DNA from: an uncultured Erysipelotrichia bacterium
Lineage (GTDB): Bacteria; Bacillota_I; Bacilli_A; CAYWJS01
DNA: 64,000 bases
Direction of reading: 5' to 3'
Assembly (NCBI GenBank): GCA_964458855.1
Contig: CAYWJS010000003.1
Location: forward strand, 1,957 to 65,956
Part shown: piece after piece, positions 1 to 29,560 of the stretch
Position numbering within the stretch: position 1 is the first letter of the stretch
Layout of the letters: each line of letters begins with the position of its first letter
Notes under the pieces: generated by a model
What the model saw: the letters and a program-made list of their open reading frames with translations, nothing else
Told to the model about the DNA's origin: nothing
The model's database searches: none
Program-made: the position numbers and the translations under genes

Positions 1-293
1 CTACAGACAGTCATTATATTGATATTAAATCTGAGTTAGCAGACTGTAATAATTCCTTAATTCCTATAGTCCATAAATGGGCTGAATTTAATAAAGATTT
101 ACTTAGATGTTATTTCATTGATTGGAAAAGCTGCTATATTAACCAGAATGTATTGGATGGAACTCAATGGGAGCTTAATGTTACATTTGATAATGGTACA
201 ACAATTAAGCGTTATGGCAGTAATGCCTATCCACCCCATTGGGAAAAATTGATTGCGGCGTTTCATAAATACGGATTGCCTATAATTAGATGA
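1..293 (+). CDS. Partial CDS (C-terminal fragment, 5' end outside window), hypothetical protein; stop TGA at 291-293, 16 nt upstream of mcrB
   Basis: Open frame from window edge translating ...NGTTIKRYGSNAYPPHWEKLIAAFHKYGLPIIR*; same strand and GC-richer composition as mcrBC; no family recognised. Confidence 0.4.
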   Translation, partial: TDSHYIDIKSELADCNNSLIPIVHKWAEFNKDLLRCYFIDWKSCYINQNVLDGTQWELNVTFDNGTTIKRYGSNAYPPHWEKLIAAFHKYGLPIIR

Positions 294-309
294 TTAGAGG
301 TGAAAAGAT

Positions 310-2919
310 ATGGATTCAAATATTCAATTAAAAAATCAATTTGCCTGGACTTCTTTTTATATGGAGTTTGCTGATAAACTGTTGCCATATAAAAATAATC
401 GTTCGCACCTTCTTGAGTTGTTAAAAGACGTTTATAACGATTTAGGATTGCGCTATCCGTTTATAGAAAAGGACGGTATGCTGATTGACGATATTTGCCC
501 GTTTACCGTATTTGGCTGTTTTAATAAAGGGATTTCCAATGAAAATCGTATTGCTTTGATGAAAGGCATTGGCAGTAAACTCGGTGTTAAGACTTCAGTG
601 CCTACAGAATTTGACGGCATTCCGGTACTTAACAACATGAAGGCTTGGTTTTTCGCCGGTAAAAGTGAGCGAAAAGAAGATGACATTCCCAACCTATGGG
701 ACACATTTGAAGCCGGATTAAACTATGCAGACAATCCGTCAGAAGTCTCCAAGTCAGCATTTATAGCCTGTTATGATAAAGTAAGAAAGCAATTTGGAAT
801 TAAGTGGAATTTAACTATGGGACTGTATTGGATACGCCCCTTTTCCTACTTAAACCTTGATGATCGTAACAGAAGTTATCTGACACAAGATAGCTCTCCT
901 TATTATGCAAGTATTACTAAAATTTCTAACTTAAAGCAGCCTCCAAGTGCAAAAACCTATTTAGATCTCATTACTGTATGTAAAGAAATCTTTGCAAAGA
1001 GCGACAGTCCTTATCACAGTTTTCCCGAACTGTCCCACATAGCATGGGCTACAACAACTTCGGGAGCACGGAATAACAATATCACTTCAACCGCTAATAA
1101 AAAAATAGGCTGGATTTTTCAAGGTAATCCTAAATACTATGATGTTATGGGTGCTATTAAGGATCTTGATGTTGTAACATGGAGCGTAAAGCAATACCAA
1201 AACCAGATCAAAAAAGGCGATCGCGCTTATATATGGGTTTCAGGCCCTGAGGGTGGCATTGTTGCTTCAGGAGTTATTCTCTGTGACCCAGAAATCAGGG
1301 AAAATAATGAGCCTGACCCCTATGATCTTTCTGGCGATATAAGTACAGGAGAACGTCTTGTCGTAGATATTGAACTTACCCAAAAAATAACGGATGCTGT
1401 TATTAAGAGAGAAGATTTCTTAGCGGATGAACGCCTAAAAAACGCAAATATTATTTCTTTCCCAAATGTAACAAATTCTAGATTGACTTCCGAGCAGGCC
1501 GATGTTATAGACAGCATTATCAACGGCACCTATATACGTATAGAGCCAAAGAATTCAGATGAAACATCAGCCCCTTTAAGACGATACTGGATTTATGCCC
1601 CCGGCAGCAATTCTTCCAAATGGGAAGAGTTTTACTCTCAAGGAATTATGGGTATTGGATGGGATGAATTAGGCGACCTTAAACAATACCCCAGCAAAGA
1701 TGCCATGAAAGCCAAAATGAAGGAACTGTATGGCGCTGAATACTCATATATTAACTCAGTCCTTGCCACATGGCAGTTTGCTAATGAGATTAAAGTCGGC
1801 GATATTGTTTATGCAAAAAAAGGCATGCATAAAGTAATCGGGCGTGGCATAGTTGAATCCGACTATATTTTTAACGCAGATCGCGATGAGTATAAACATA
1901 TTCGTAAAATCAAATGGACACATAACGGGGAGTGGGAACACCCGGGACAAGCTGTCATGAAAACCCTTACCGACATAACTCCTTATACTGATTATGTACA
2001 AAAACTAGAAGCGCTCTTTATTGATGATGACTCTGTAGATATTGAAGAAAAAGAAATTGTGTATGAGTCCTACACCGAAGATAACTTCCTCAATGAAGTT
2101 TTCATGGATGCCGAACGTTACAATACTTTGGTTAATCTCTTAAAAACCAAGAAAAACATCATCCTGCAAGGAGCGCCCGGCGTTGGTAAAACTTTTGCTG
2201 CCAAAAGACTTGCTTTTTCCATAATGGGGCAAAAAGATACAAGCCGCGTTATGATGGTTCAATTCCATCAAAGTTACAGCTATGAAGACTTTATTATGGG
2301 ATTCCGGCCAACCAAAGACGGATTTGAGCTTACCCCCGGGCCTTTTTACCAGTTCTGCAAAACAGCACAGGATGACGATGAACGGGATTATTTCTTTATC
2401 ATTGACGAAATTAACCGCGGCAATGTAAGCAAAATTTTTGGTGAGTTGATGATGCTTATAGAAAAGGAAAAACGCGGTGAAAAACTACGCCTTCTTTACT
2501 CCAACGAGTTATTTTCTGTTCCCAAAAATCTCTACATTATCGGTATGATGAATACTGCCGACCGCAGCCTTGCCATAATCGATTATGCTTTGAGAAGAAG
2601 ATTCGCTTTCTTTGAACTCGAGCCTGCTTTTGACTCTGAAGGATTTAAAAAAATTATACAGCAAGCAAACAACCCCAAGTTTAATGCCCTGGTTGAGCAA
2701 ATTAAAGCTTTGAATGACTTTATCTGCAAGGATGAATCCCTTGGCAGTGGGTTCAGAATTGGACACAGTTATCTGTGCACAAATAGTGAGGTAACCGACG
2801 AATGGCTGGAATCCGTTATTAAGTATGAATTGTTGCCTCTTTTAAACGAATATTGGTTTGACGAACCATCCAAAATAGAACAGTGGACAAAAAGGCTGAG
2901 TGAGGTTTTATATGATTAG
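310..2919 (+). CDS. mcrB: McrB-like AAA+ GTPase subunit of a type IV (modification-dependent) restriction system, with a long N-terminal extension carrying two PUA-like (EVE/YTH-type) reader domains
   Basis: ORF track 869 aa; Walker A GAPGVGKT (nt ~2170-2193), McrB signature MMNTADRS, RBS GAGGTG before ATG; N-terminal segments with W/GD/G-rich beta-barrel-like pattern. Confidence 0.85.
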   Translation: MDSNIQLKNQFAWTSFYMEFADKLLPYKNNRSHLLELLKDVYNDLGLRYPFIEKDGMLIDDICPFTVFGCFNKGISNENRIALMKGIGSKLGVKTSVPTEFDGIPVLNNMKAWFFAGKSERKEDDIPNLWDTFEAGLNYADNPSEVSKSAFIACYDKVRKQFGIKWNLTMGLYWIRPFSYLNLDDRNRSYLTQDSSPYYASITKISNLKQPPSAKTYLDLITVCKEIFAKSDSPYHSFPELSHIAWATTTSGARNNNITSTANKKIGWIFQGNPKYYDVMGAIKDLDVVTWSVKQYQNQIKKGDRAYIWVSGPEGGIVASGVILCDPEIRENNEPDPYDLSGDISTGERLVVDIELTQKITDAVIKREDFLADERLKNANIISFPNVTNSRLTSEQADVIDSIINGTYIRIEPKNSDETSAPLRRYWIYAPGSNSSKWEEFYSQGIMGIGWDELGDLKQYPSKDAMKAKMKELYGAEYSYINSVLATWQFANEIKVGDIVYAKKGMHKVIGRGIVESDYIFNADRDEYKHIRKIKWTHNGEWEHPGQAVMKTLTDITPYTDYVQKLEALFIDDDSVDIEEKEIVYESYTEDNFLNEVFMDAERYNTLVNLLKTKKNIILQGAPGVGKTFAAKRLAFSIMGQKDTSRVMMVQFHQSYSYEDFIMGFRPTKDGFELTPGPFYQFCKTAQDDDERDYFFIIDEINRGNVSKIFGELMMLIEKEKRGEKLRLLYSNELFSVPKNLYIIGMMNTADRSLAIIDYALRRRFAFFELEPAFDSEGFKKIIQQANNPKFNALVEQIKALNDFICKDESLGSGFRIGHSYLCTNSEVTDEWLESVIKYELLPLLNEYWFDEPSKIEQWTKRLSEVLYD

Positions 2920-3946
2920 AATTCAAAATATATACTATATGCTTGCTTATGCTTTTCATGTCTTAAATGAAGAAGGCTATAAACAAGTAGCAACTGAAGA
3001 TTTCGAATATACTTCTGATTTATTTGCAGCAATTCTTTCCAAAGGTATTGCCAGCCAAATCAAAAGGGGATTAAGTAGGGAGTATATCAGCAAAACAGAA
3101 GCCGTTATTTCACCTACAGGTAAAATCAATGTCTCAGCCTCCATTGTACAGAATTCCATGCTTAAAAAGAAACTGGTCTGTGATTATGATGAGTTTACAG
3201 AAAACAGTTACTTGAATAAAATACTCAAAACCACTGCAATGCTTTTGATACGCTGTCCGGAAGTATCAACGCAGCATAAAAAAGCCTTAAGGAAAACAAT
3301 GCTTTATTTCAGTAATGTTGATGAAATAAATCCGCGCAGAATTCAATGGTCGAGTATCAGATACCATAGGAATAATGCCACCTATAAAATGCTGCTGAAT
3401 ATCTGCTATCTAGTTATCGAAGGTATGCTAATGACCGAGCAGGACGGTTCCCGAAAGTTGGCCCGCTATGTAGACGACCAGCGTATGCCCAGGCTTTATG
3501 AAAAATTTGTGTTGGAATATTATCGTAGGCATTATCCCCAGTTTAATGCTTCATCCACCATTATTGACTGGGATGTCGACGGTGGAGAAATAGAATATTT
3601 ACCTACTATGAAATCAGATATAACTCTTCGATATCGGGGCAAAACACTCATTATAGACACAAAATACTATAAGAAGACCATGCAGATAAACAGCTTGTTC
3701 AACAGCCGAACAATCCATTCTCACAATTTGTATCAGATATTTACTTATGTAAAAAACATGGATTTAGCTCGTTCGGGAAATATAAGCGGCCTTTTGCTTT
3801 ATGCCAAAACTGATGAAGATATTGTACCGGACAACGATTATATTATCGGCGGTAATCGTATTAGCGTTAAAACTTTGGACTTGAATACTGACTTTTCCAA
3901 CATATCAAAACAGTTGAACGCAATAGTAGAAAAGATGTTATTATAA
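2912..3946 (+). CDS. mcrC: McrC-like nuclease subunit (PD-(D/E)xK) of the McrBC system
   Basis: ORF track 2900..3946 starts at GTG; more likely ATG at 2912 with RBS GAGGT, overlapping mcrB stop (ATGATTAG); N-terminal IRIQNIYYMLAYAF typical of McrC; catalytic-like motif IIDTKYYKK. Confidence 0.8.
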   Translation: MIRIQNIYYMLAYAFHVLNEEGYKQVATEDFEYTSDLFAAILSKGIASQIKRGLSREYISKTEAVISPTGKINVSASIVQNSMLKKKLVCDYDEFTENSYLNKILKTTAMLLIRCPEVSTQHKKALRKTMLYFSNVDEINPRRIQWSSIRYHRNNATYKMLLNICYLVIEGMLMTEQDGSRKLARYVDDQRMPRLYEKFVLEYYRRHYPQFNASSTIIDWDVDGGEIEYLPTMKSDITLRYRGKTLIIDTKYYKKTMQINSLFNSRTIHSHNLYQIFTYVKNMDLARSGNISGLLLYAKTDEDIVPDNDYIIGGNRISVKTLDLNTDFSNISKQLNAIVEKMLL

Positions 3947-4002
3947 TCATGTGTTTTATCGCATAAAGATAATAAGCAGTAATACATCCATCCTGTATCC
4001 TC

Positions 4003-4025
4003 AACCCCCTATAAAAAAGGGGGTT
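4003..4025 (+). terminator. Hairpin downstream of mcrC (aaccccc-loop-gggggtt), putative intrinsic terminator
   Basis: Inverted repeat read directly; T-tract after the stem is weak. Confidence 0.35.
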
Positions 4026-4279
4026 ATCTAATCTGGTAACTCAACTATTAATTTTCAGGGTGGTTGATATGTTCCCGCAAACAATAAAAATAAGGGTTTC
4101 CTGACATTGCCTCATTCGGCAGATCGGCCTCGAGAAAAACTAAATGTCTGGAAACCCTTTATTTACAAGCATTTTTAACTTTCTATTTATCTACCCTTGT
4201 CATCAATACCACGCACTCAACATGGTATGTAAATTTATTTTCACCAATTTTTGTAATTATTACGCGTGATAAAATACAT

Positions 4280-4564
4280 TCATTCGCTACCATCTATTGA
4301 ATCTTTAATAATATCTATATAATTCTGTTCTTTTATATCTGTATATAATACTTCTTTCTTTTCTCCAATATCAGTTGGTAAAAGATTAGTATTATTTGTT
4401 AAATATATTTGGGCTTGCTTTACTAATAGCTCTTCATTCCTACGAAAAGCATTAAAACGATTCTTTTGAATAAGTGATGAAAAACTTGGGATTGCTATTG
4501 CAAGAATCAAACCCAGAATAACAATAACTGCAAGAAGTTCAATTAAAGTAAAACCTCGACTCAT
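4280..4564 (-). CDS. Prepilin-type N-terminal cleavage/methylation domain protein (type IV pilin or ComGC-like pseudopilin)
   Basis: 94 aa; MSRG|FTLIELLAVIVILGLILAIAIPS class III signal/hydrophobic helix; strong RBS AGGAGG; ends with TGA stop. Confidence 0.7.
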   Translation of the reverse strand: MSRGFTLIELLAVIVILGLILAIAIPSFSSLIQKNRFNAFRRNEELLVKQAQIYLTNNTNLLPTDIGEKKEVLYTDIKEQNYIDIIKDSIDGSE

Positions 4565-4631
4565 AATGCTTCCTCCTCATTAAGTTTCAAATTAATATTA
4601 GCGCAAAAACCATCATAAATAAACATTTGCA

Positions 4632-4663
4632 CTTAAAATAAAAAGCCAAAATTTATTTTTGGC
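4632..4663 (-). terminator. Rho-independent terminator after rpe
   Basis: Stem agccaaaa/ttttggct with loop, followed by a T-run on the minus strand. Confidence 0.55.
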
Positions 4664-4667
4664 TTAG

Positions 4668-5321
4668 TTATTTATTTCGTAATGAATTAATTGCCCCTTC
4701 TAAATTATTTTGTTTCAATAAATAATTACCAGATACTAAGATATCGGCACCACTTTCAATTGCAAGAGGAGCGGTAATATTATTAATTCCTCCATCTACT
4801 TCAATCAAAACATCTAAATTGTTTTTAATAATTTCTTTCTTTGCTTCCTTTATTTTTTCTAAAGAAAATTTTATAAACTCTTGACCACCTTTTCCTGGTT
4901 CAACTGACATAATTAATAATAAGTCAATTTCTTTTAATAAGTGTTTTATTTCAGAAACACTTGTTTTTGGTTTAATTGAAATACCACATTTTATTTTTTC
5001 TTTTTTTATCATTTTAATTAAATTATAGATATTATTCTTTATTGCTGCTTCATAATGAAAAGTTATAATTTCTGGTTTTATTTCAATATATTCTTTAATT
5101 TTTTCTTCCAAACTTTCAATCATTAAATGAACATCTAATTTCTTTTTGGATATTTTTTTTACCTTTTTTATAAGATCAATAGGAAAAGTTTTATTAGGAA
5201 CAAATTTTCCGTCCATAACATCAATATGAATATATTCACATGAGGTATTATTAAGAGAGTTTATAGTTTCTTCAATCTTATTAAAATCTGTTGAAAGAAT
5301 TGATGGAGAAATTTTTACCAT
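4668..5321 (-). CDS. rpe: Ribulose-phosphate 3-epimerase
   Basis: 217 aa; HIDVMDGKFVPN and overall Rpe pattern. Confidence 0.9.
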   Translation of the reverse strand: MVKISPSILSTDFNKIEETINSLNNTSCEYIHIDVMDGKFVPNKTFPIDLIKKVKKISKKKLDVHLMIESLEEKIKEYIEIKPEIITFHYEAAIKNNIYNLIKMIKKEKIKCGISIKPKTSVSEIKHLLKEIDLLLIMSVEPGKGGQEFIKFSLEKIKEAKKEIIKNNLDVLIEVDGGINNITAPLAIESGADILVSGNYLLKQNNLEGAINSLRNK

Positions 5322-5322
5322 A

Positions 5323-6195
5323 TTAATACCTCGGCTTTCTCTGTTTTATTTCTTCTGCAAATTTTAAGTAATTCTCATATCTACTAGATAAAATTCTTCC
5401 TTCTTCTAGTAGTTTTTTTATATTACAACCATCTTCTTCTATATGATTACAATTGCGATACTTACATTCACTTGCATTATCAAAAAATTCAGGGAAACTG
5501 TTACGTAAATCTTCTAGTTCTAATTCATTAAAATCAAGTTTTGAAAATCCTGGAGTATCTGCAACAAGTCCCCCTTGAATATTAATTAATTCAACATGAC
5601 GAGTAGTATGACGTCCTCTTCCTAAAGTTTTTGAAATAGGGCTTGTTTTAAGTTTAAAATTTTTATCTAAAGCATTTAATATACTACTTTTTCCTACCCC
5701 ACTTTGACCTGCAAGTACTGTTATTTTATCTTTAAATAAATTATTTAAAAGATTTATATTTTCTTTTGTTTTTGTTGATACCAATGTTGTTTTATAACCT
5801 ATATTTTCATAGTAATTTGCAAGGCTTTCTAAATTTTTTCGCTCTTTTTCGTTTAAAAGATCAATTTTATTAATAATAACAACCACATCAATATTTTTAA
5901 ACGTTACTGTTACTAGTATCTTATCTAATAAATTTAAACTTAATTCTGGTTCTTTTGCACTCATTACAACTATTGCTTGATCAACATTTGCAATAGGTGG
6001 TCTGATAAGAAAGTTTTTACGTGGAAGAAGTTCCATAATATAACCTTCTTTTTCATTAAACTTCACATAATCGCCAACTAGTAGTTTTATATTATCTTTT
6101 CGAAAAACTCCTCGACCTCGGCAAAAATATATTTTACTATCTGCAAGAACCAGAAAATTTCCGCTATCAGATTTTGTTATTATTCCTTTTATCAT
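5323..6195 (-). CDS. rsgA: Ribosome small-subunit-dependent GTPase A (RsgA/CpgA)
   Basis: GQSGVGKSSILNAL P-loop, C-terminal Cys/His zinc finger; ORF track extends to 6273 but overlaps prkC, so start taken at the internal Met just after the prkC stop. Confidence 0.85.
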   Translation of the reverse strand: MIKGIITKSDSGNFLVLADSKIYFCRGRGVFRKDNIKLLVGDYVKFNEKEGYIMELLPRKNFLIRPPIANVDQAIVVMSAKEPELSLNLLDKILVTVTFKNIDVVVIINKIDLLNEKERKNLESLANYYENIGYKTTLVSTKTKENINLLNNLFKDKITVLAGQSGVGKSSILNALDKNFKLKTSPISKTLGRGRHTTRHVELINIQGGLVADTPGFSKLDFNELELEDLRNSFPEFFDNASECKYRNCNHIEEDGCNIKKLLEEGRILSSRYENYLKFAEEIKQRKPRY

Positions 6196-18788: not shown

Positions 18789-18864
18789 TGGTAACCCGTA
18801 TGGGATTCGAACCCACACATACTACCTTGAGAGGGTAGCGTGTTAACCATTTCACCAACGGGTC
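18789..18864 (-). tRNA. tRNA-Glu, anticodon read as CUC by hand folding
   Basis: 76-nt cloverleaf with acceptor GACCCGT/ACGGGTT, TPsiC loop TTCGAAT, 3' CCA encoded; anticodon loop CTCTCAA; close similarity to Firmicute tRNA-Glu. Confidence 0.75.
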
Positions 18865-18917: not shown

Positions 18918-20570
18918 TCAATAAAATCTTTGAAATCTTTTTTCCATACGCTCTCTTCCCAAAAGCTGAATAATATCATAAAGGTTTGGTGTCATATCAC
19001 GTGTTGTTAAAGCAACGCGAATAACAGTTGTAACATCTGCAACATTCCCTTTATAAGCATCAGGATTTTTTCTATACTCTTTCATTTCAGCAGCATATCC
19101 AAGTTTAGAAGACATTTCTTTAATTTTTGCAAACCAAGTTGGTTGATCATCTTCTTCGTTATAATATTCAGTAATAAATGTCTTAAGAATTGTTTTAATT
19201 TCTTCTGGATTATTGATTTTTTTAAATTTATAATCTAAGTCTCCTGTAAATAACTCATCATACATATACCATACTTCATCTTTAATTTTGCCAAATGTAA
19301 CATAATCTTTCCTTGGGTTTTCTCGTTCCCTTTCAATATTAAAAATTTTAATTGAATAATCTGAATATTTCATTAAAAGTTCTGCAAATTCTAAATCATA
19401 TTCCTTAGCATGCTTTAAAGCTCTTTCATATACTTCTTTTGCCGTAAGACGACTAATAAAATTTTTTGAAATATGAAGAAGTTTTTCAAGATCAAAAAGC
19501 GAGCCACTAGTACTTACTTTTTTAAAATCAAATTCAAAGTTTTCAATTGTTGCATCTGGATTACTTTCATACCATTCTTCAAAATTAGAATTTGCAACTG
19601 TCATAATATAAAGCAAAACTGCTTCCGTTGGTATTCCTTTTTCATAATAATAACTTACTGCTGCTTCTGGATCTTTTCTTTTACTTAATTTTCTTCTTGA
19701 ACCTGTCTCATCTATTTTCATAAGGGGTGAAAGATGTGCATATTTTGGTGGTTCAAAACCAAAAACTTGAAATAGTTGCACATGTATTGGAAGTGATGAA
19801 AGCCATTCATCCCCTCGAATTACATGCGTTGTTCTCATTAAGTAATCATCTACAAGATGTGCAAAGTGATATGTTGGAAGCCCATCTCCTTTTATTAAGA
19901 CAACATCCAAATCATTTTCAGGAAACTCTACTCTTCCTTTTACTAAATCTTCAAAAACAATTTTGTTTTCAAAGTTTCCTGGTGATTTTAGACGAATTAC
20001 ATAAGGCTTTCCAGCACGAATTTTCTTTATTGCTTCTTGAAAAGTAAGATTTCTACATTTCGCATACTTTCCATAATAACCAATTCTTGCTTTTACCCCT
20101 TCTTGACTTTTTCTTTCTTCTTCTAGTTCTTCTTCAGTACAAAAACAAGGGTATGCAAGCCCTTTTTCTATTAGATGGCGAGCAAAAGCATGATAAATTT
20201 CTTTTCTTTTACTTTGAATATAAGGGCCATAATTTCCAATCTCTTCTGTTTCACTAATCATTCCTTCATCAAAGGTAATGTTAAAGTTTTTAAGATCACG
20301 AATAATATTTACAATTCCGTTTTTAACACTTCGTTTTTGATCTGTATCTTCAATTCTTAAGAAAAATACACCACCTGTTTGTTCTGCAACTTTCTTAGCA
20401 ATAAAAGAAGAAAACAAAGAACCAAGATGTACAAAGCCCGTTGGGCTTGGTGCAAATCTTGTTACTACTTGTCCTTCTTTTAAATTTCTTTTTGGATAAA
20501 TTTTTTCATAGTCTTCTACTGTTTTTGTAATATTAGGAAACAAAATATCAGCAAATTCTTTGTTTGTCAT
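18918..20570 (-). CDS. gltX: Glutamate--tRNA ligase (GluRS-type class I synthetase, longer than usual)
   Basis: 550 aa; RFAPSPTGFVHLG HIGH-type motif, RIEDTD, KLSKR (KMSKS-like). Confidence 0.85.
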   Translation of the reverse strand: MTNKEFADILFPNITKTVEDYEKIYPKRNLKEGQVVTRFAPSPTGFVHLGSLFSSFIAKKVAEQTGGVFFLRIEDTDQKRSVKNGIVNIIRDLKNFNITFDEGMISETEEIGNYGPYIQSKRKEIYHAFARHLIEKGLAYPCFCTEEELEEERKSQEGVKARIGYYGKYAKCRNLTFQEAIKKIRAGKPYVIRLKSPGNFENKIVFEDLVKGRVEFPENDLDVVLIKGDGLPTYHFAHLVDDYLMRTTHVIRGDEWLSSLPIHVQLFQVFGFEPPKYAHLSPLMKIDETGSRRKLSKRKDPEAAVSYYYEKGIPTEAVLLYIMTVANSNFEEWYESNPDATIENFEFDFKKVSTSGSLFDLEKLLHISKNFISRLTAKEVYERALKHAKEYDLEFAELLMKYSDYSIKIFNIERERENPRKDYVTFGKIKDEVWYMYDELFTGDLDYKFKKINNPEEIKTILKTFITEYYNEEDDQPTWFAKIKEMSSKLGYAAEMKEYRKNPDAYKGNVADVTTVIRVALTTRDMTPNLYDIIQLLGRERMEKRFQRFY

Positions 20571-20610
20571 ATTATCCCTCTTTTATCTTAAATGCTACCT
20601 TATATTATAA

Positions 20611-20642
20611 CAAAAAAAAAGAACTATTAATAGTAATAGTTC
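20611..20642 (-). terminator. Rho-independent terminator after tRNA-Met
   Basis: gaactatta/taatagttc stem followed by a 9-nt T-run on the minus strand. Confidence 0.5.
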
Positions 20643-20655
20643 TATTTATTTTCAT

Positions 20656-20732
20656 TGGTAGCGATGGAGGGACTTGAACCCCCGACCTGCCGGGTATGAA
20701 CCGGACGCTCTAGCCAACTGAGCTACATCGCC
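20656..20732 (-). tRNA. tRNA-Met (anticodon CAU), elongator type by acceptor and anticodon stem; tRNA-Ile2 (lysidine) not excluded
   Basis: 77-nt cloverleaf, D-stem GCTC/GAGC, anticodon loop TTCATAC, TPsiC GGGGG/TTCAAGT/CCCTC, CCA encoded. Confidence 0.85.
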
Positions 20733-21015
20733 ATCTGCTCTATAATAATAGCAAATTTTTTCAAAAGATGCAATATTAAAAATTTTGCATTATAAAGTTA
20801 ATTCTTTCGTAAAACCTTTTCTTTTTTTCTTACTATTTTTTTCAAAATTTTCTAATTTAAAAGATGGAACTATAATTGCTTCTGTTTTTTCGTTATTATA
20901 TAAATCGTTTTTATGATCATCTAAATTAAGTAAAAATAATTGGTACTTTTTTGTTTTTCTTTTTCCTCTCCCCTAATTATGCACTATATAATAACATTCA
21001 ATTAAATTTAATGCA

Positions 21016-21046
21016 ACCAAAAAAAGAAGTCAAAGAAATGACTTCT
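21016..21046 (-). terminator. Hairpin terminator downstream of the small basic ORF
   Basis: agaagtca/tgacttct stem with T-runs on both strands. Confidence 0.45.
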
Positions 21047-21063
21047 TTTTTCTTCTATAACTT

Positions 21064-21228
21064 TTATAACTTTAATTCCAAAGACTTTCCTTTTTCCTTT
21101 TTTTGGTAATGGTAATAAGGGAAACCTTTTTTTCTTTTACAAACTAATTGATATTCTAATTTTTTTACTTGTCTAATTAATTGTTCTTTTTCTTTATCTT
21201 TAATCTTCCTTCTGGTTTTATAGCTCAT
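21064..21228 (-). CDS. Small highly basic protein (56 aa), hypothetical; below the ORF-track length cut-off
   Basis: Hand translation MSYKTRRKIKDKEKEQLIRQVKKLEYQLVCKRKKGFPYYHYQKKEKGKSLELKL*; perfect RBS GGAGG about 8 nt upstream of ATG; own terminator. Confidence 0.35.
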   Translation of the reverse strand: MSYKTRRKIKDKEKEQLIRQVKKLEYQLVCKRKKGFPYYHYQKKEKGKSLELKL

Positions 21229-21250
21229 ATATAAAACCTCCTCTAAGTCA

Positions 21251-22507
21251 TTACTCGTAGCGCAAAATATATTTATCTTTAAACTTCTCTTTATTTAGTG
21301 TATGCGGACTATACTCAGGAAATACTATTGTATCTTGATTTCCATCAGAAACATAACGTGAATCCTTATAAGAGGCAAAAGCATTATCAATTATTTCTGG
21401 TGGAGCACCCCAATTAATTTCATCATTTGCTTCATTAGTTGCTCTTATTCTTGGAATATTATAAATATCTATTTTTTCATCATATATTGAGCGACTAAAC
21501 CATTTTCCTATATTTAACGCTGCTTGCATTTTATAGGGAACTCCATTATATGAACCTGACTTTAAAGCAGGAAAGTTTGCATGATTTGGATCTGTAAGAG
21601 AACCATTTGGTTTAGCAAGAACTTGTAAATGACGCCCTGGAACAATGCTTTCTAAAAGTTGCTCAATCTTTCCTATTTCTTCTTCTACTTTTTCATAAGA
21701 GACCTTATCTAAAGGAGTATGACTATAAGTATGATTTGCTACCTCATAACCATTTTCAACAAGCCACTTTATTTTGAGTTCTTCATGTGTTCTACCATTA
21801 AATAATCCTTTATTTAAAAAGAAAGTTGCGGTAACATTATAATCTGGATATTTTTTCTTAAATTCTTCTAAAATACCTACAGCACATTTTGGATCAATTA
21901 TAATGTTTCCGTCTTCATCAAATCCTAAAATATTAAAATTATCACGATTTCCATCATCAAAAGTTAAAACAATTGGTGAATATCCAAGTGGTGTTGAAAT
22001 ATTACCACTAATGAAGTCCCCAAGAGTAATCATGCGGTATCCTTCTTCATAAAAAAACTCTAAATCTTTTTTAAAATCTTCATAATAACGGTTATAACCT
22101 GCATAATCCACTTGTTCTCTCGTTGCTCGTATTCCATGGTACATCATAATTGGGACATACCCAAGTTCATTAACTTTATACCTTGCTATTTCTTCTGGAT
22201 CAAGTGAACCTTTTGAAATAACAATTTGTTCTTTTCCTTTAAAATCATTTAATATTGTGTTTGGTTCAATAGTTTGTGAAATTATTTTTCCCTTTGGAAC
22301 ATTAGTTGTATAAATATAAGTTATCTCATAATCTAAGTTTACTTTTTCAGCAAACGCAATAAACTCAGCCTCCCTTTTCCCCACAAAGTTTGGCATTTTA
22401 ACACGTGAAAATTGATAATACAAAAATACGCCCACTATTATTAAAGTTATAACGAGAAGTGTTCTTTTTAAAAATACCATCTTATTAAATCTTCTTCGCC
22501 TATACAT
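21251..22507 (-). CDS. Membrane-anchored polysaccharide deacetylase (NodB homology domain)
   Basis: 418 aa; N-terminal TM, NodB motifs LTFDDG and H-containing motifs. Confidence 0.75.
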   Translation of the reverse strand: MYRRRRFNKMVFLKRTLLVITLIIVGVFLYYQFSRVKMPNFVGKREAEFIAFAEKVNLDYEITYIYTTNVPKGKIISQTIEPNTILNDFKGKEQIVISKGSLDPEEIARYKVNELGYVPIMMYHGIRATREQVDYAGYNRYYEDFKKDLEFFYEEGYRMITLGDFISGNISTPLGYSPIVLTFDDGNRDNFNILGFDEDGNIIIDPKCAVGILEEFKKKYPDYNVTATFFLNKGLFNGRTHEELKIKWLVENGYEVANHTYSHTPLDKVSYEKVEEEIGKIEQLLESIVPGRHLQVLAKPNGSLTDPNHANFPALKSGSYNGVPYKMQAALNIGKWFSRSIYDEKIDIYNIPRIRATNEANDEINWGAPPEIIDNAFASYKDSRYVSDGNQDTIVFPEYSPHTLNKEKFKDKYILRYE

Positions 22508-22515
22508 TTTACCAC

Positions 22516-23568
22516 CTACCTTATATAATTTCGTTTTAATCTTTTATCTAAGTTAGTTACCACTTCATAATTAATTGTTCCCGCCTTTTCTGCAATTTCA
22601 TCTACAGTAATATTGGGTCCAATTAATTCAACAGTATCACCTACTAAAACTTTATCATCTACCTCAACCATTAGAAGGTCCATACAAATGCGTCCTACAA
22701 TTCTGTAATGTTTATCGGAAATTACAACTGGTACATCTTCATACCTTCTTAACCAACCATCACCATAACCAATAGGAATAACTGCAATTTTCGTATCTTT
22801 TTTGGCAACATACTTTGGCCCATAACTTACAAATTCGCCTTTTTTTAAGTTTTTAATTTGAACAACATTACTATATAAACTAAGTATTGGTTTTAAATTA
22901 AGATCAAGATTAGGTGCTGGTTTTAGACCATATAAAGCAAGTCCTGGTCGAACTGCATTTGTAAAATCTTCTTTCTGCTTTATTAAAGCAGCTGAAGCAG
23001 AGGTATGAATATATTTAAAATCATAATCAATTTCATTTAAAATTTGAACAAAAAAATCCCTTTGTTTAAAGTAAAGTTCATCATTTGTATCAACAGTTGC
23101 ATAATGCGTGTATATTCCTTCTAAGCATAAGTTTTCATTATTTTTTATAATACTTATTGCTTCCTTTATCTCATCAATACTTTTTAACCCCAATCTATTC
23201 ATTCCAGTGTCAACTTTTAAATGAAGTTTTATTTTTTCTTTTGGAGTTATTTTTTTTAACCAATCAAGAGAAAATATTGTAAGAGTTAAATCATTTTCTA
23301 AAGCAAGTGAAATATCACTTGGATCAATTGGACTTAAAATAAGTATTGGTGTTTTTATATTTGCTTTTCTTAAAATGAGTGCCTCACTTATCCTTGCAAC
23401 AGCAAGATAAGCAACTCTTTCTTTTTCTAAAACTTTGGCAATTTCTACAGCACCATGTCCATATGCATCAGCTTTTACCACAGCAATAATTTTTTTATTA
23501 GTATGTTTTTTTATTTGATTTAAATTATAAATTAGGTTTGTTAAGTTGATAACACAATTTTTGTCCAT
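22516..23568 (-). CDS. alr: Alanine racemase
   Basis: 350 aa; AVVKADAYGHG PLP-lysine motif, GYGDG, GRICMD. Confidence 0.85.
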   Translation of the reverse strand: MDKNCVINLTNLIYNLNQIKKHTNKKIIAVVKADAYGHGAVEIAKVLEKERVAYLAVARISEALILRKANIKTPILILSPIDPSDISLALENDLTLTIFSLDWLKKITPKEKIKLHLKVDTGMNRLGLKSIDEIKEAISIIKNNENLCLEGIYTHYATVDTNDELYFKQRDFFVQILNEIDYDFKYIHTSASAALIKQKEDFTNAVRPGLALYGLKPAPNLDLNLKPILSLYSNVVQIKNLKKGEFVSYGPKYVAKKDTKIAVIPIGYGDGWLRRYEDVPVVISDKHYRIVGRICMDLLMVEVDDKVLVGDTVELIGPNITVDEIAEKAGTINYEVVTNLDKRLKRNYIR

Positions 23569-23624
23569 TTTTATACACCTTCATTTTTTATTTTAACATA
23601 AAAAAATCTAAATAAAAATCTATG

Positions 23625-24059
23625 TTACTTACCTTTATTTGCCAAAGACTCATAAATTTTAAATACTTCCGGTAAATATTTATTTATCATTACAGGACGA
23701 AAAGTTTTTGTTTCTACACAAACAACAGTTGATGTTCCCTCTACTAATAATTCTCCTTTCTCATTAAAAATTTTATGAGCATATGTTGTCCTTACTTTGT
23801 TAAATTCTAAAACTTTTGTTTTTACTTTTACTTTATCCCCAAAACGAGCTGGGCGAAAATATTTTATATTGATTTCCCTTACTGGAAATATTATTCCCCT
23901 TTCTTTTACCTCATTTAAAGTAAAACCTAACTCTTCAAAAAAACTAGTGCGTCCTAAATCAAACCAAATTAAGTAATTTGCATGATACACAACACCCATT
24001 TCATCTGTCTCGTTATATCTTACACTTAACTCAATTTCATTTTCCATCTTTATTATCAC
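23625..24059 (-). CDS. Acyl-CoA thioesterase, hotdog fold (YbgC/4HBT family)
   Basis: 144 aa; N-terminal RYNETDEMGVVYHANYL signature. Confidence 0.7.
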   Translation of the reverse strand: MIIKMENEIELSVRYNETDEMGVVYHANYLIWFDLGRTSFFEELGFTLNEVKERGIIFPVREINIKYFRPARFGDKVKVKTKVLEFNKVRTTYAHKIFNEKGELLVEGTSTVVCVETKTFRPVMINKYLPEVFKIYESLANKGK

Positions 24060-24118
24060 CCTATTTGTATTGTAGCATAAAACATTTTAAGTGTAATAAT
24101 AAAATTGTTGAAAAAATG

Positions 24119-28505: not shown

Positions 28506-28695
28506 TAATTATGTTATCATGTTTATAGATACTTGTTTTTATTAGGATTACGATAGGAAGTGGATATTTTGCAAAATGGAAAAGGATTTACATTAATCGA
28601 TAATTATGTTATCATGTTTATAGATACTTGTTTTTATTAGGATTACGATAGGAAGTGGATATTTTGCAAAATGGAAAAGGATTTACATTAATCGA
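28506..28695. repeat. Perfect tandem duplication, 2 x 95 bp (28506-28600 and 28601-28695), covering promoter, RBS and the first codons of the downstream pilin-like gene
   Basis: Both copies read base by base and are identical. Confidence 0.9.
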
Positions 28696-29560
28696 ACTTT
28701 TAGCAGTCATTGTCATTATGGGGATAATCCTTGCAATTGCAGTACCTAGTACAATGAGAATAATAGAAAATTCACAACAAAAATCTTTAGCTAAAGTAGC
28801 AAACGGAATAGTTAGAGCCGCAAAATATGAATACCCTCGCGAAATTATTAGAGAACAAGATGCAACAGAAATAATCTTTAATTATGAGGACGGCATAGAG
28901 AGTTCTAATGTTGAAGGAGAAAATTTAAAATACACAGGTAAGAAACCAAAAGATGGGATTGTTAAAATTAGCCCAGAAGGTAAAATTGCTATTGCAATCC
29001 ATGATGGTAGGTATTGTGCAACAAAATCATATTTAGAAAGCGAAGTAACAATAAACAATATCACAAAAGATGAATGCATGAGTTCATTAAGTGAATCAAG
29101 AGAAATTGTTGCCACTAGAATTGAAGAAAAACTGAGCGACGGTTTTTTTATTTTTAATTATATGGCTCAATTTTCTAATAATTTAAATTTAACAGTAGGA
29201 AAAAAATATGAGGTAATATTAAAAACTGATCAAGGTACAATTAAATTAGAAAACATAATTTGCGAGCTAGATGATACATTTAACCAGTTCCCAACATTGC
29301 GTTACACTCCTGGCTATGACGGTGGTCCAGAGGACTTTCATCACATATATGATAAAGGTAAAGAATTTGTAGAAACTACCTTACCACTAATTCAACATAT
29401 ATATGAAACGCATGGACCAGGTTTTTTTGGAGTAAATTTAACAGCATTAGAAACACTTCAAAAATTTTCTGAGAATGGTGAGTCTTGGATACTAGAAATT
29501 GGTGAACTTTCTTCAATTCAAGCACCAAATATCGAAGAAATAACAATTATTGAACATTAA
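28655..29560 (+). CDS. Prepilin-type N-terminal methylation domain protein, large type IV pilin-like protein
   Basis: 301 aa; ORF track starts at GTG 28655; likely start is TTG 28664 after RBS AGGAAG, giving leader MQNGKG|FTLIELLAVIVIMG. Confidence 0.65.
   Translation: MDILQNGKGFTLIELLAVIVIMGIILAIAVPSTMRIIENSQQKSLAKVANGIVRAAKYEYPREIIREQDATEIIFNYEDGIESSNVEGENLKYTGKKPKDGIVKISPEGKIAIAIHDGRYCATKSYLESEVTINNITKDECMSSLSESREIVATRIEEKLSDGFFIFNYMAQFSNNLNLTVGKKYEVILKTDQGTIKLENIICELDDTFNQFPTLRYTPGYDGGPEDFHHIYDKGKEFVETTLPLIQHIYETHGPGFFGVNLTALETLQKFSENGESWILEIGELSSIQAPNIEEITIIEH

Follow-up and report, generated by a model that had tools for sequence, protein, structure and literature searches.

Is the short open reading frame (ORF) that lies between a polysaccharide deacetylase gene and a tRNA, in the 64,000-nucleotide stretch of DNA analysed here (the window), a gene in its own right, and if so, of what kind? 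Cistrons such as this one are missed by the length cut-offs applied during annotation. The window has a G+C content of 29%, and nearly all its genes are on the minus strand. Read directly from the sequence, the small ORF occupies positions 21064..21228 of the same strand, running from an ATG at 21228-21226 to a TAA at 21066-21064, and hence consists of 54 sense codons plus the stop (55 codons). The first-pass annotation had placed it at these coordinates, although it counted 56 codons and left the strand unstated. The product, MSYKTRRKIKDKEKEQLIRQVKKLEYQLVCKRKKGFPYYHYQKKEKGKSLELKL, contains 15 lysine and four arginine residues among its 54 amino acids (35%), together with six acidic residues, and has a net charge of +13, a pI of 10.1 and a mass of 6.76 kDa (~6.8 kDa). 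The protein is thus highly basic, as was originally described, although the proportion of Lys and Arg is lower than the 40% or so first estimated. The exact 54-aa sequence already exists, without a name, as a called gene in a public protein collection, in which it derives from a 72.5-kb NCBI contig and from Logan assemblies.

The signals preceding the ORF are those expected of a translated gene. By direct reading, a Shine-Dalgarno sequence, GGAGG, is found on the minus strand at 21237..21241, with a spacer to the ATG of exactly 8 nt, matching the approximate distance first reported. The window contains 37 occurrences of this motif, 31 of which are on the gene-rich minus strand, and approximately a dozen stand 4-9 nt ahead of the starts of ORFs of at least 94 codons. 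Hence GGAGG is the working ribosome-binding site of this organism. The length of the frame was then compared with that expected by chance, by shuffling the 198-nt spacer that separates the stop codon of the upstream gene from the downstream hairpin 20,000 times while preserving its dinucleotides. Same-strand ORFs of at least 54 codons arose in 0.075% of these shuffles, or 0.03% when only ATG starts were permitted, with a median of 13 codons for the longest ORF. Adenine makes up 53% of the ORF strand, a composition that by itself reduces the frequency of stop codons and makes translations Lys-rich. Nevertheless, a frame that opens at a working GGAGG site and extends across the spacer as far as the terminator is very unlikely to have arisen by accident. 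The signal from codon usage was ambiguous: under a coding model for the window, frame 0 scored +11 to +79 bits above the remaining five, and the codon log-odds relative to an intergenic trinucleotide model was +5.2 bits, a score that falls at the 6.8th percentile of real-gene segments of the same length and is reached by 9% of spurious overlapping ORFs. The ORF nevertheless combines a ribosome-binding site and start codon with an open frame longer than expected by chance, and the frame is retained among the available copies, such that it is probably a real, translated cistron.

The 3' boundary is similarly well defined. An intrinsic-terminator-like hairpin is predicted on the minus strand at 21019..21052, beginning 12 nt past the stop codon, with a 14-bp stem and a 6-nt loop (AAAAAAGAAGUCAU/UUCUUU/GACUUCUUUUUU), the 3' arm of which runs into UUUUUUU. 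Its folding free energy of -15.8 kcal/mol (z = -3.2) was not equalled by any of 200 shuffled sequences, in keeping with the clean hairpin and T-run noted on first inspection. A simple terminator scan did not flag the hairpin at 21052..21019, probably because the T-run is absorbed into an A:U-extended stem. A sigma-70-like site (TTGACT, 17 nt, TAAATT; 9/12 matches) is found at 21005..21033 on the minus strand, overlapping the 3' arm of the hairpin.

Upstream, the ORF adjoins a set of genes on the minus strand. The likely first gene of this operon encodes an acyl-ACP thioesterase-like (4HBT) protein (23625..24059), and is followed by that for a 350-aa alanine racemase (alr, 22516..23568), matching Pfam Ala_racemase_N/C, and then by that for a 418-aa protein with PASTA and polysaccharide deacetylase domains (21251..22507), which lies directly upstream of the small ORF. 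The thioesterase and alr genes are separated by 56 nt, the alr and deacetylase genes by 8 nt, and the deacetylase stop codon and the ATG of the small ORF by 22 nt. No sigma-70-like site was detected between the deacetylase gene and the small ORF, which, given the 22-nt gap, is therefore likely to be the last cistron of the operon, with the hairpin acting as the operon terminator. The proposed transcript would carry the thioesterase, alr, PASTA-deacetylase and small ORF in that order and end at the hairpin (21052..21019), such that the small ORF would be co-transcribed with the deacetylase and translated from its own ribosome-binding site. The structural part of the original description is therefore supported: a strongly basic product is specified by a small, separate cistron that has a ribosome-binding site of its own in front and a terminator behind.

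The next feature on the minus strand is a tRNA with a CAT anticodon (20656..20732), 286 nt downstream of the terminator, which is a separate unit and marks the boundary of the feature. It is followed by gltX (18918..20570, minus strand), encoding a 550-aa glutamyl-tRNA synthetase (GluRS), and then by a tRNA-Glu(CUC) at 18789..18864. An Rfam scan of 19500..22500 matched only the tRNA at E <= 1, and the possibility of an RNA element or T-box was rejected on this basis. MazE/MazF-type antitoxins are often encoded after alr in Firmicutes, but such an identity was also rejected for the small ORF, which has neither a partner gene nor a family match.

The tRNA synthetase locus has features of its own. 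The GluRS comprises a class Ic catalytic domain and Anticodon_2, and is approximately 60 aa longer than a typical bacterial GltX, a length conserved across thousands of related uncultured Bacilli. In its four nearest relatives, gltX is preceded by a tRNA-Gln(CUG) (L086 5883..5956, L088 5886..5960, L089 1147..1220 and L090 5695..5770), and in three of these four it is also followed by tRNA-Glu(CUC), such that likely substrates of the synthetase lie on both sides of its gene. The window keeps the downstream tRNA-Glu(CUC), whereas its upstream tRNA is CAT (Met or Ile2), not CUG. In L086, a cluster of Z1, DUF4420, AIPR and DNA methylase genes (1..5804), which looks like a defence island of the restriction or abortive-infection type, lies directly upstream of tRNA-Gln and gltX, which shows that this junction is a variable insertion spot.

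Searches of curated families did not assign the small protein to any known group. Across Pfam, NCBIfam, PHROGs, PADLOC and the sequences of the PDB, nothing was recovered beyond coiled-coil noise. The best Pfam match was to Striatin, a coiled coil, at E = 0.016 and 16.1 bits relative to a cutoff of 29.4; the best E-values elsewhere were 0.055 in NCBIfam, 0.17 in PHROGs (phrog_20343) and 0.11 in the PDB, with none in PADLOC. SufR_cyano was also among the best curated-family matches, scoring 13.2 against a cutoff of 178.8. No score in Pfam-A, NCBIfam, PHROGs or PADLOC exceeded its threshold, and no E-value was significant. Direct comparison with proteins gave the same picture. A word-indexed search of 5.8 billion clusters returned one protein, the conspecific allele P0001, which is 96% identical, and this was likewise the only credible match when 1.84 billion representative proteins were searched exhaustively with phmmer; a 790-aa protein also reported by phmmer (E = 8.5e-4) was a bias match with no aligned stretch. 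Scans of JGI metagenome contigs and IMG/VR with back-translated patterns found no relative of the ORF, there was no similarity to viral sequences in PHROGs or IMG/VR, and the window contains no paralogue.

These searches leave the functions originally suggested for the product unsupported. No match to SASPs or other small spore proteins was found in Pfam or NCBIfam at E <= 10. The public names of this species' deacetylase fragments place it in the Tenericutes/Mycoplasmatota, which are not known to sporulate. The alternative proposal, a nucleoid-associated protein or regulator, found no backing in the form of an HU/IHF, HTH or RHH domain, and the wider comparison with small-protein families that had been recommended as a check yielded no match at E <= 10 beyond coiled-coil noise. 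Ribosomal proteins such as bS21 and bL34 are similar in size, pI and Lys/Arg content, but they are universally conserved, whereas this protein matches no ribosomal family in Pfam or NCBIfam and has no homologue outside the species among the 1.84 billion representatives. A further comparison is with FbpA, FbpB and FbpC of Bacillus subtilis, which are Fur-regulated small basic proteins proposed to be RNA-chaperone co-factors. These Firmicute proteins are also roughly 50-60 aa, very basic and helical, and represent the kind of polyanion-binding helper that the small protein may be. However, the latter does not match the Fbp Pfam families at E <= 10, has no Fur box or iron context, and appears to be encoded by the last cistron of a cell-wall operon.

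The predicted structure is simple. AlphaFold, run without an alignment, models one helix at residues 3-32, with block pLDDT values of 87, 92 and 82 (82-92 over the first 30 residues), followed by a low-confidence tail, residues 33-54, that is predicted to be disordered and is rich in Tyr and Lys (GFPYYHYQKKEKGK; also given as KKGFPYYHYQKKEKGKSLELKL). There is no HTH or RHH fold in this model of a single helix and disordered tail. Within the helix, a Lys/Arg-rich stretch at residues 4-16 is succeeded by a short hydrophobic stripe of L17, V21, L24 and L28, and the helical hydrophobic moment peaks at approximately 0.5 over residues 11-29. The N-terminal two-thirds of the protein would therefore be a single long basic helix, the hydrophobic stripe of which could pair two such helices, with the tail as a flexible segment. 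A basic segment placed directly before hydrophobic residues spaced at intervals of 3-4, all in one continuous predicted helix, recalls the layout of bZIP proteins; yet there are only around two heptads, no bZIP signature residues and no Pfam match, and the predicted resemblance is one of layout only. The product has neither a hydrophobic segment nor a signal peptide, and hence should be cytoplasmic. From its composition and predicted structure, the most likely activity, although a tentative one, would be electrostatic binding of a polyanion, nucleic acid being the first candidate; as for other tiny basic proteins, the partner could be RNA, the ribosome or DNA.

The absence of homologues by sequence was mirrored by absence at the orthologous position. 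The deacetylase is 99% identical to conspecific copies and then at most 48% identical to any relative, its closest relatives lying at 40-48%, whereas GltX is 100% identical within the species and then at most 75%, with its closest relatives at 70-75%. According to the names in public records, these relatives are metagenome-assembled genomes (MAGs) of uncultured Bacilli, Mollicutes and Tenericutes from guts and digesters. Synteny was compared around deacetylase homologues at 80 genome loci and six metagenome loci, and at none of the 80 or the six was the deacetylase gene followed by a small basic ORF. The commonest gene in this position encodes a pilin-like protein that starts MKLNNKGFAIT, and begins 9-15 nt after the deacetylase stop codon; others include galE-like genes and uppS, and in the best metagenomic relatives (47-48% identical) polA is found 78 nt downstream. 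Approaching from the other side, the genes that precede gltX in the GluRS relatives (70-75% identical) are unrelated ones, such that the context is unconserved, and no match to the small ORF was found there. Lenient tblastn and blastn searches with the ORF and spacer against all these related loci returned only AT-rich noise. Hence the small ORF has been shown to be restricted to this species or a very narrow lineage, an orphan by both sequence and position, albeit one whose nearest sequenced relatives are already distant. As nothing comparable is found in those relatives, the gene is inferred to be either young or very fast-evolving.

The pairing of the deacetylase with the pilin-like gene is itself widespread in RF39-like, Mollicutes or Bacilli MAGs (loci L005-L084; for example, L023 5109.. 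and L006 5158..). The N-terminus of the encoded protein, MKLNNKGFAIT(S/G)(V/I)LYGLLILF, is prepilin-like without the canonical FTLIE glutamate. The idea that the small ORF or the 286-nt spacer is a decayed version of this gene was rejected, as neither the ORF nor the 286-nt spacer shares any similarity with it. Elsewhere, the window contains two prepilin genes, at 4280..4564 (minus strand) and 28655..29560 (plus strand), with canonical N-termini (GFTLIELLAVIVI) and Pfam N_methyl matches, a sign that this small genome of low GC content may encode a competence-type or type IV pilus system.

Variation within the species could be assessed using 14 conspecific contigs, from different sequencing runs, that cover part of the region; where the source was stated, these came from anaerobic-digester metagenomes. 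Digester samples in which the species occurs include ERR6175504, ERR6210758 and SRR8925798. The complete ORF is present in ten of the 14, all ten of which keep the 54 codons and an identical ribosome-binding site and terminator, with no indel or premature stop. The check on conservation proposed at the outset therefore has two outcomes: within the species the frame is kept in 10/10 copies, but beyond it no counterpart exists by sequence or position. The ORF has two segregating sites, both nonsynonymous and both charge-changing (R32G and E45K), and no synonymous sites, defining three haplotypes: R32/E45, found in the window and in L085, R32/K45 and G32/K45. Hence the bias towards synonymous substitutions that had been anticipated for a conserved gene did not emerge from these few sites and shallow divergence. 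The density of segregating sites in the ORF (2/165) is 3.7 times that in the three flanking genes (9/2745), a difference that is not significant over all segregating sites, and that reached P = 0.047 in a single pairwise comparison. However, the flanking genes, which are real, are also mostly variable at nonsynonymous positions (seven nonsynonymous against two synonymous sites, with divergence too shallow to measure selection), and therefore the pattern says nothing specific about the small ORF.

Across 20650..24100 as a whole, comparison with the 14 contigs identified nine nonsynonymous and two synonymous sites in four genes, and transitions account for ten of the 12 segregating sites. Outside coding sequence, these 3.4 kb are polymorphic only at window position 20717, corresponding to position 16 (D-loop) of the tRNA, where the window has T and seven of eight conspecific contigs have C. 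Such nonsynonymous-dominated variation is unusual under purifying selection. One explanation would be that slightly deleterious variants persist in a small population, another that the assembly consensus contains artefacts.

Taken together, the best explanation is that the ORF is a genuine, translated, species-restricted orphan gene, forming the last cistron of the thioesterase-alr-PASTA-deacetylase operon and encoding a soluble cytoplasmic protein, a reading that we assign a probability of about one in two. The alternatives differ in how much of this they deny. One holds that the spacer is a non-coding 3' untranslated region, in which the ORF and GGAGG coincide by chance and are unused by ribosomes. 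The failure to find homologues and the overlap of the codon score with the distribution for spurious ORFs would be expected if this were so; but chance is very unlikely to have brought together an optimally spaced GGAGG, an ATG and a frame of 54 codons that closes 12 nt short of the terminator, and the stretch belongs to no Rfam family, making this interpretation improbable. Slightly less probable is that the product belongs to a known small basic family, from which it has diverged too far for sequence detection, whether as a bS21-like protein, a Fur-regulated basic protein or a DNA-binding fragment of a recombinase or transposase. Proteins of these kinds typically share its size, charge and helical N-terminus, similarity soon becomes undetectable in a compositionally biased sequence of only 54 aa, and the lineage is an isolated one, as the identities of GltX (75% at most) and the deacetylase (48% at most) to any relative attest. 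Set against this are the weakness of even the best E-values in Pfam, NCBIfam, PHROGs and the PDB and their absence in PADLOC, the empty result of exhaustive phmmer outside the species, and the lack of a paralogue in the window or a mobile-element context. It is less probable still that the ORF is a leader peptide or attenuator, in which translation of a Lys-rich frame controls the terminator and thereby read-through into the tRNA and gltX. Although a ribosome terminating 12 nt before the hairpin would touch the stem, and the frame contains 15 Lys codons, 54 codons is long for a leader, an alternative antiterminator structure was not found, and neither a T-box nor another Rfam leader was matched. 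Moreover, nothing connects lysine with the downstream genes, for the CAT-anticodon tRNA and the GluRS; the tRNA lies some 286 nt beyond the hairpin, with a candidate promoter visible by eye directly ahead of it; and the gltX genes of relatives occur in unrelated contexts.

The main rival accepts translation but questions function. Here the ORF would be a proto-gene without a selected role: an A-rich 3' untranslated stretch that happens to be open and to be provided with a ribosome-binding site, which may be a relic of the site that serves the downstream gene in relatives, or may have arisen convergently with it. This is a possibility to be taken seriously, albeit on the unlikely side. The restriction to one species, the ambiguous codon score on a strand that is 53% A, and the predicted disorder of half the protein are all compatible with it, as are the two charge-changing nonsynonymous polymorphisms, denser than those in neighbouring genes. 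In addition, the deacetylase gene of relatives is followed by a different (pilin-like) gene, with its ribosome-binding site and start codon 9-15 nt beyond the deacetylase stop. In opposition are the improbability of a 54-codon frame despite the composition (0.075% of shuffles), the almost exact fit of the ORF to the spacer from ribosome-binding site to terminator, and its intactness in 10/10 copies. A recent de novo birth from non-coding sequence is one route by which the ORF could have originated, compatible with the data though unlikely and unsupported by any intermediate. In such a history, the deacetylase gene of an ancestor would have preceded another gene, as in many relatives it precedes the pilin-like gene, the ribosome-binding site of which is found 9-15 nt past the stop. 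Once that gene was lost, the A-rich remnant or 3' untranslated region between the retained position of the ribosome-binding site and the terminator would have become open and translated, and the new frame would since have been fixed in the species as a basic helical protein.

The reading preferred here, that of a genuine orphan gene, fits an already known class. [quoted passage not shown] The small ORF resembles these SSOGs, or ORFans, in lacking similarity outside its species, and in being short, less optimal in its codons and partly disordered. It also resides in an operon-like arrangement with conserved genes, in its native context and without viral similarity. It differs in two respects. 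According to PMC11293555, SSOGs are mostly rare within their own species, whereas this ORF is intact in all ten of the conspecific contigs that cover the site. Additionally, the extreme charge of its product is not a general property of SSOGs. Hence the ORF fits an established category, while the functions first suggested for it are unsupported.

Taken alone, such a gene is of little significance, as lineage-restricted small ORFs occur in every bacterial genome, and the context points to no unusual mechanism. Its modest value is rather as a clean, fixed orphan, with textbook expression signals, set within a conserved cell-wall operon and shared by every sampled strain of an uncultured bacterium with a small genome of 29% GC. 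The small ORF is therefore a reasonable candidate for studying the origin of orphan or de novo small proteins and the ways in which they become functional.
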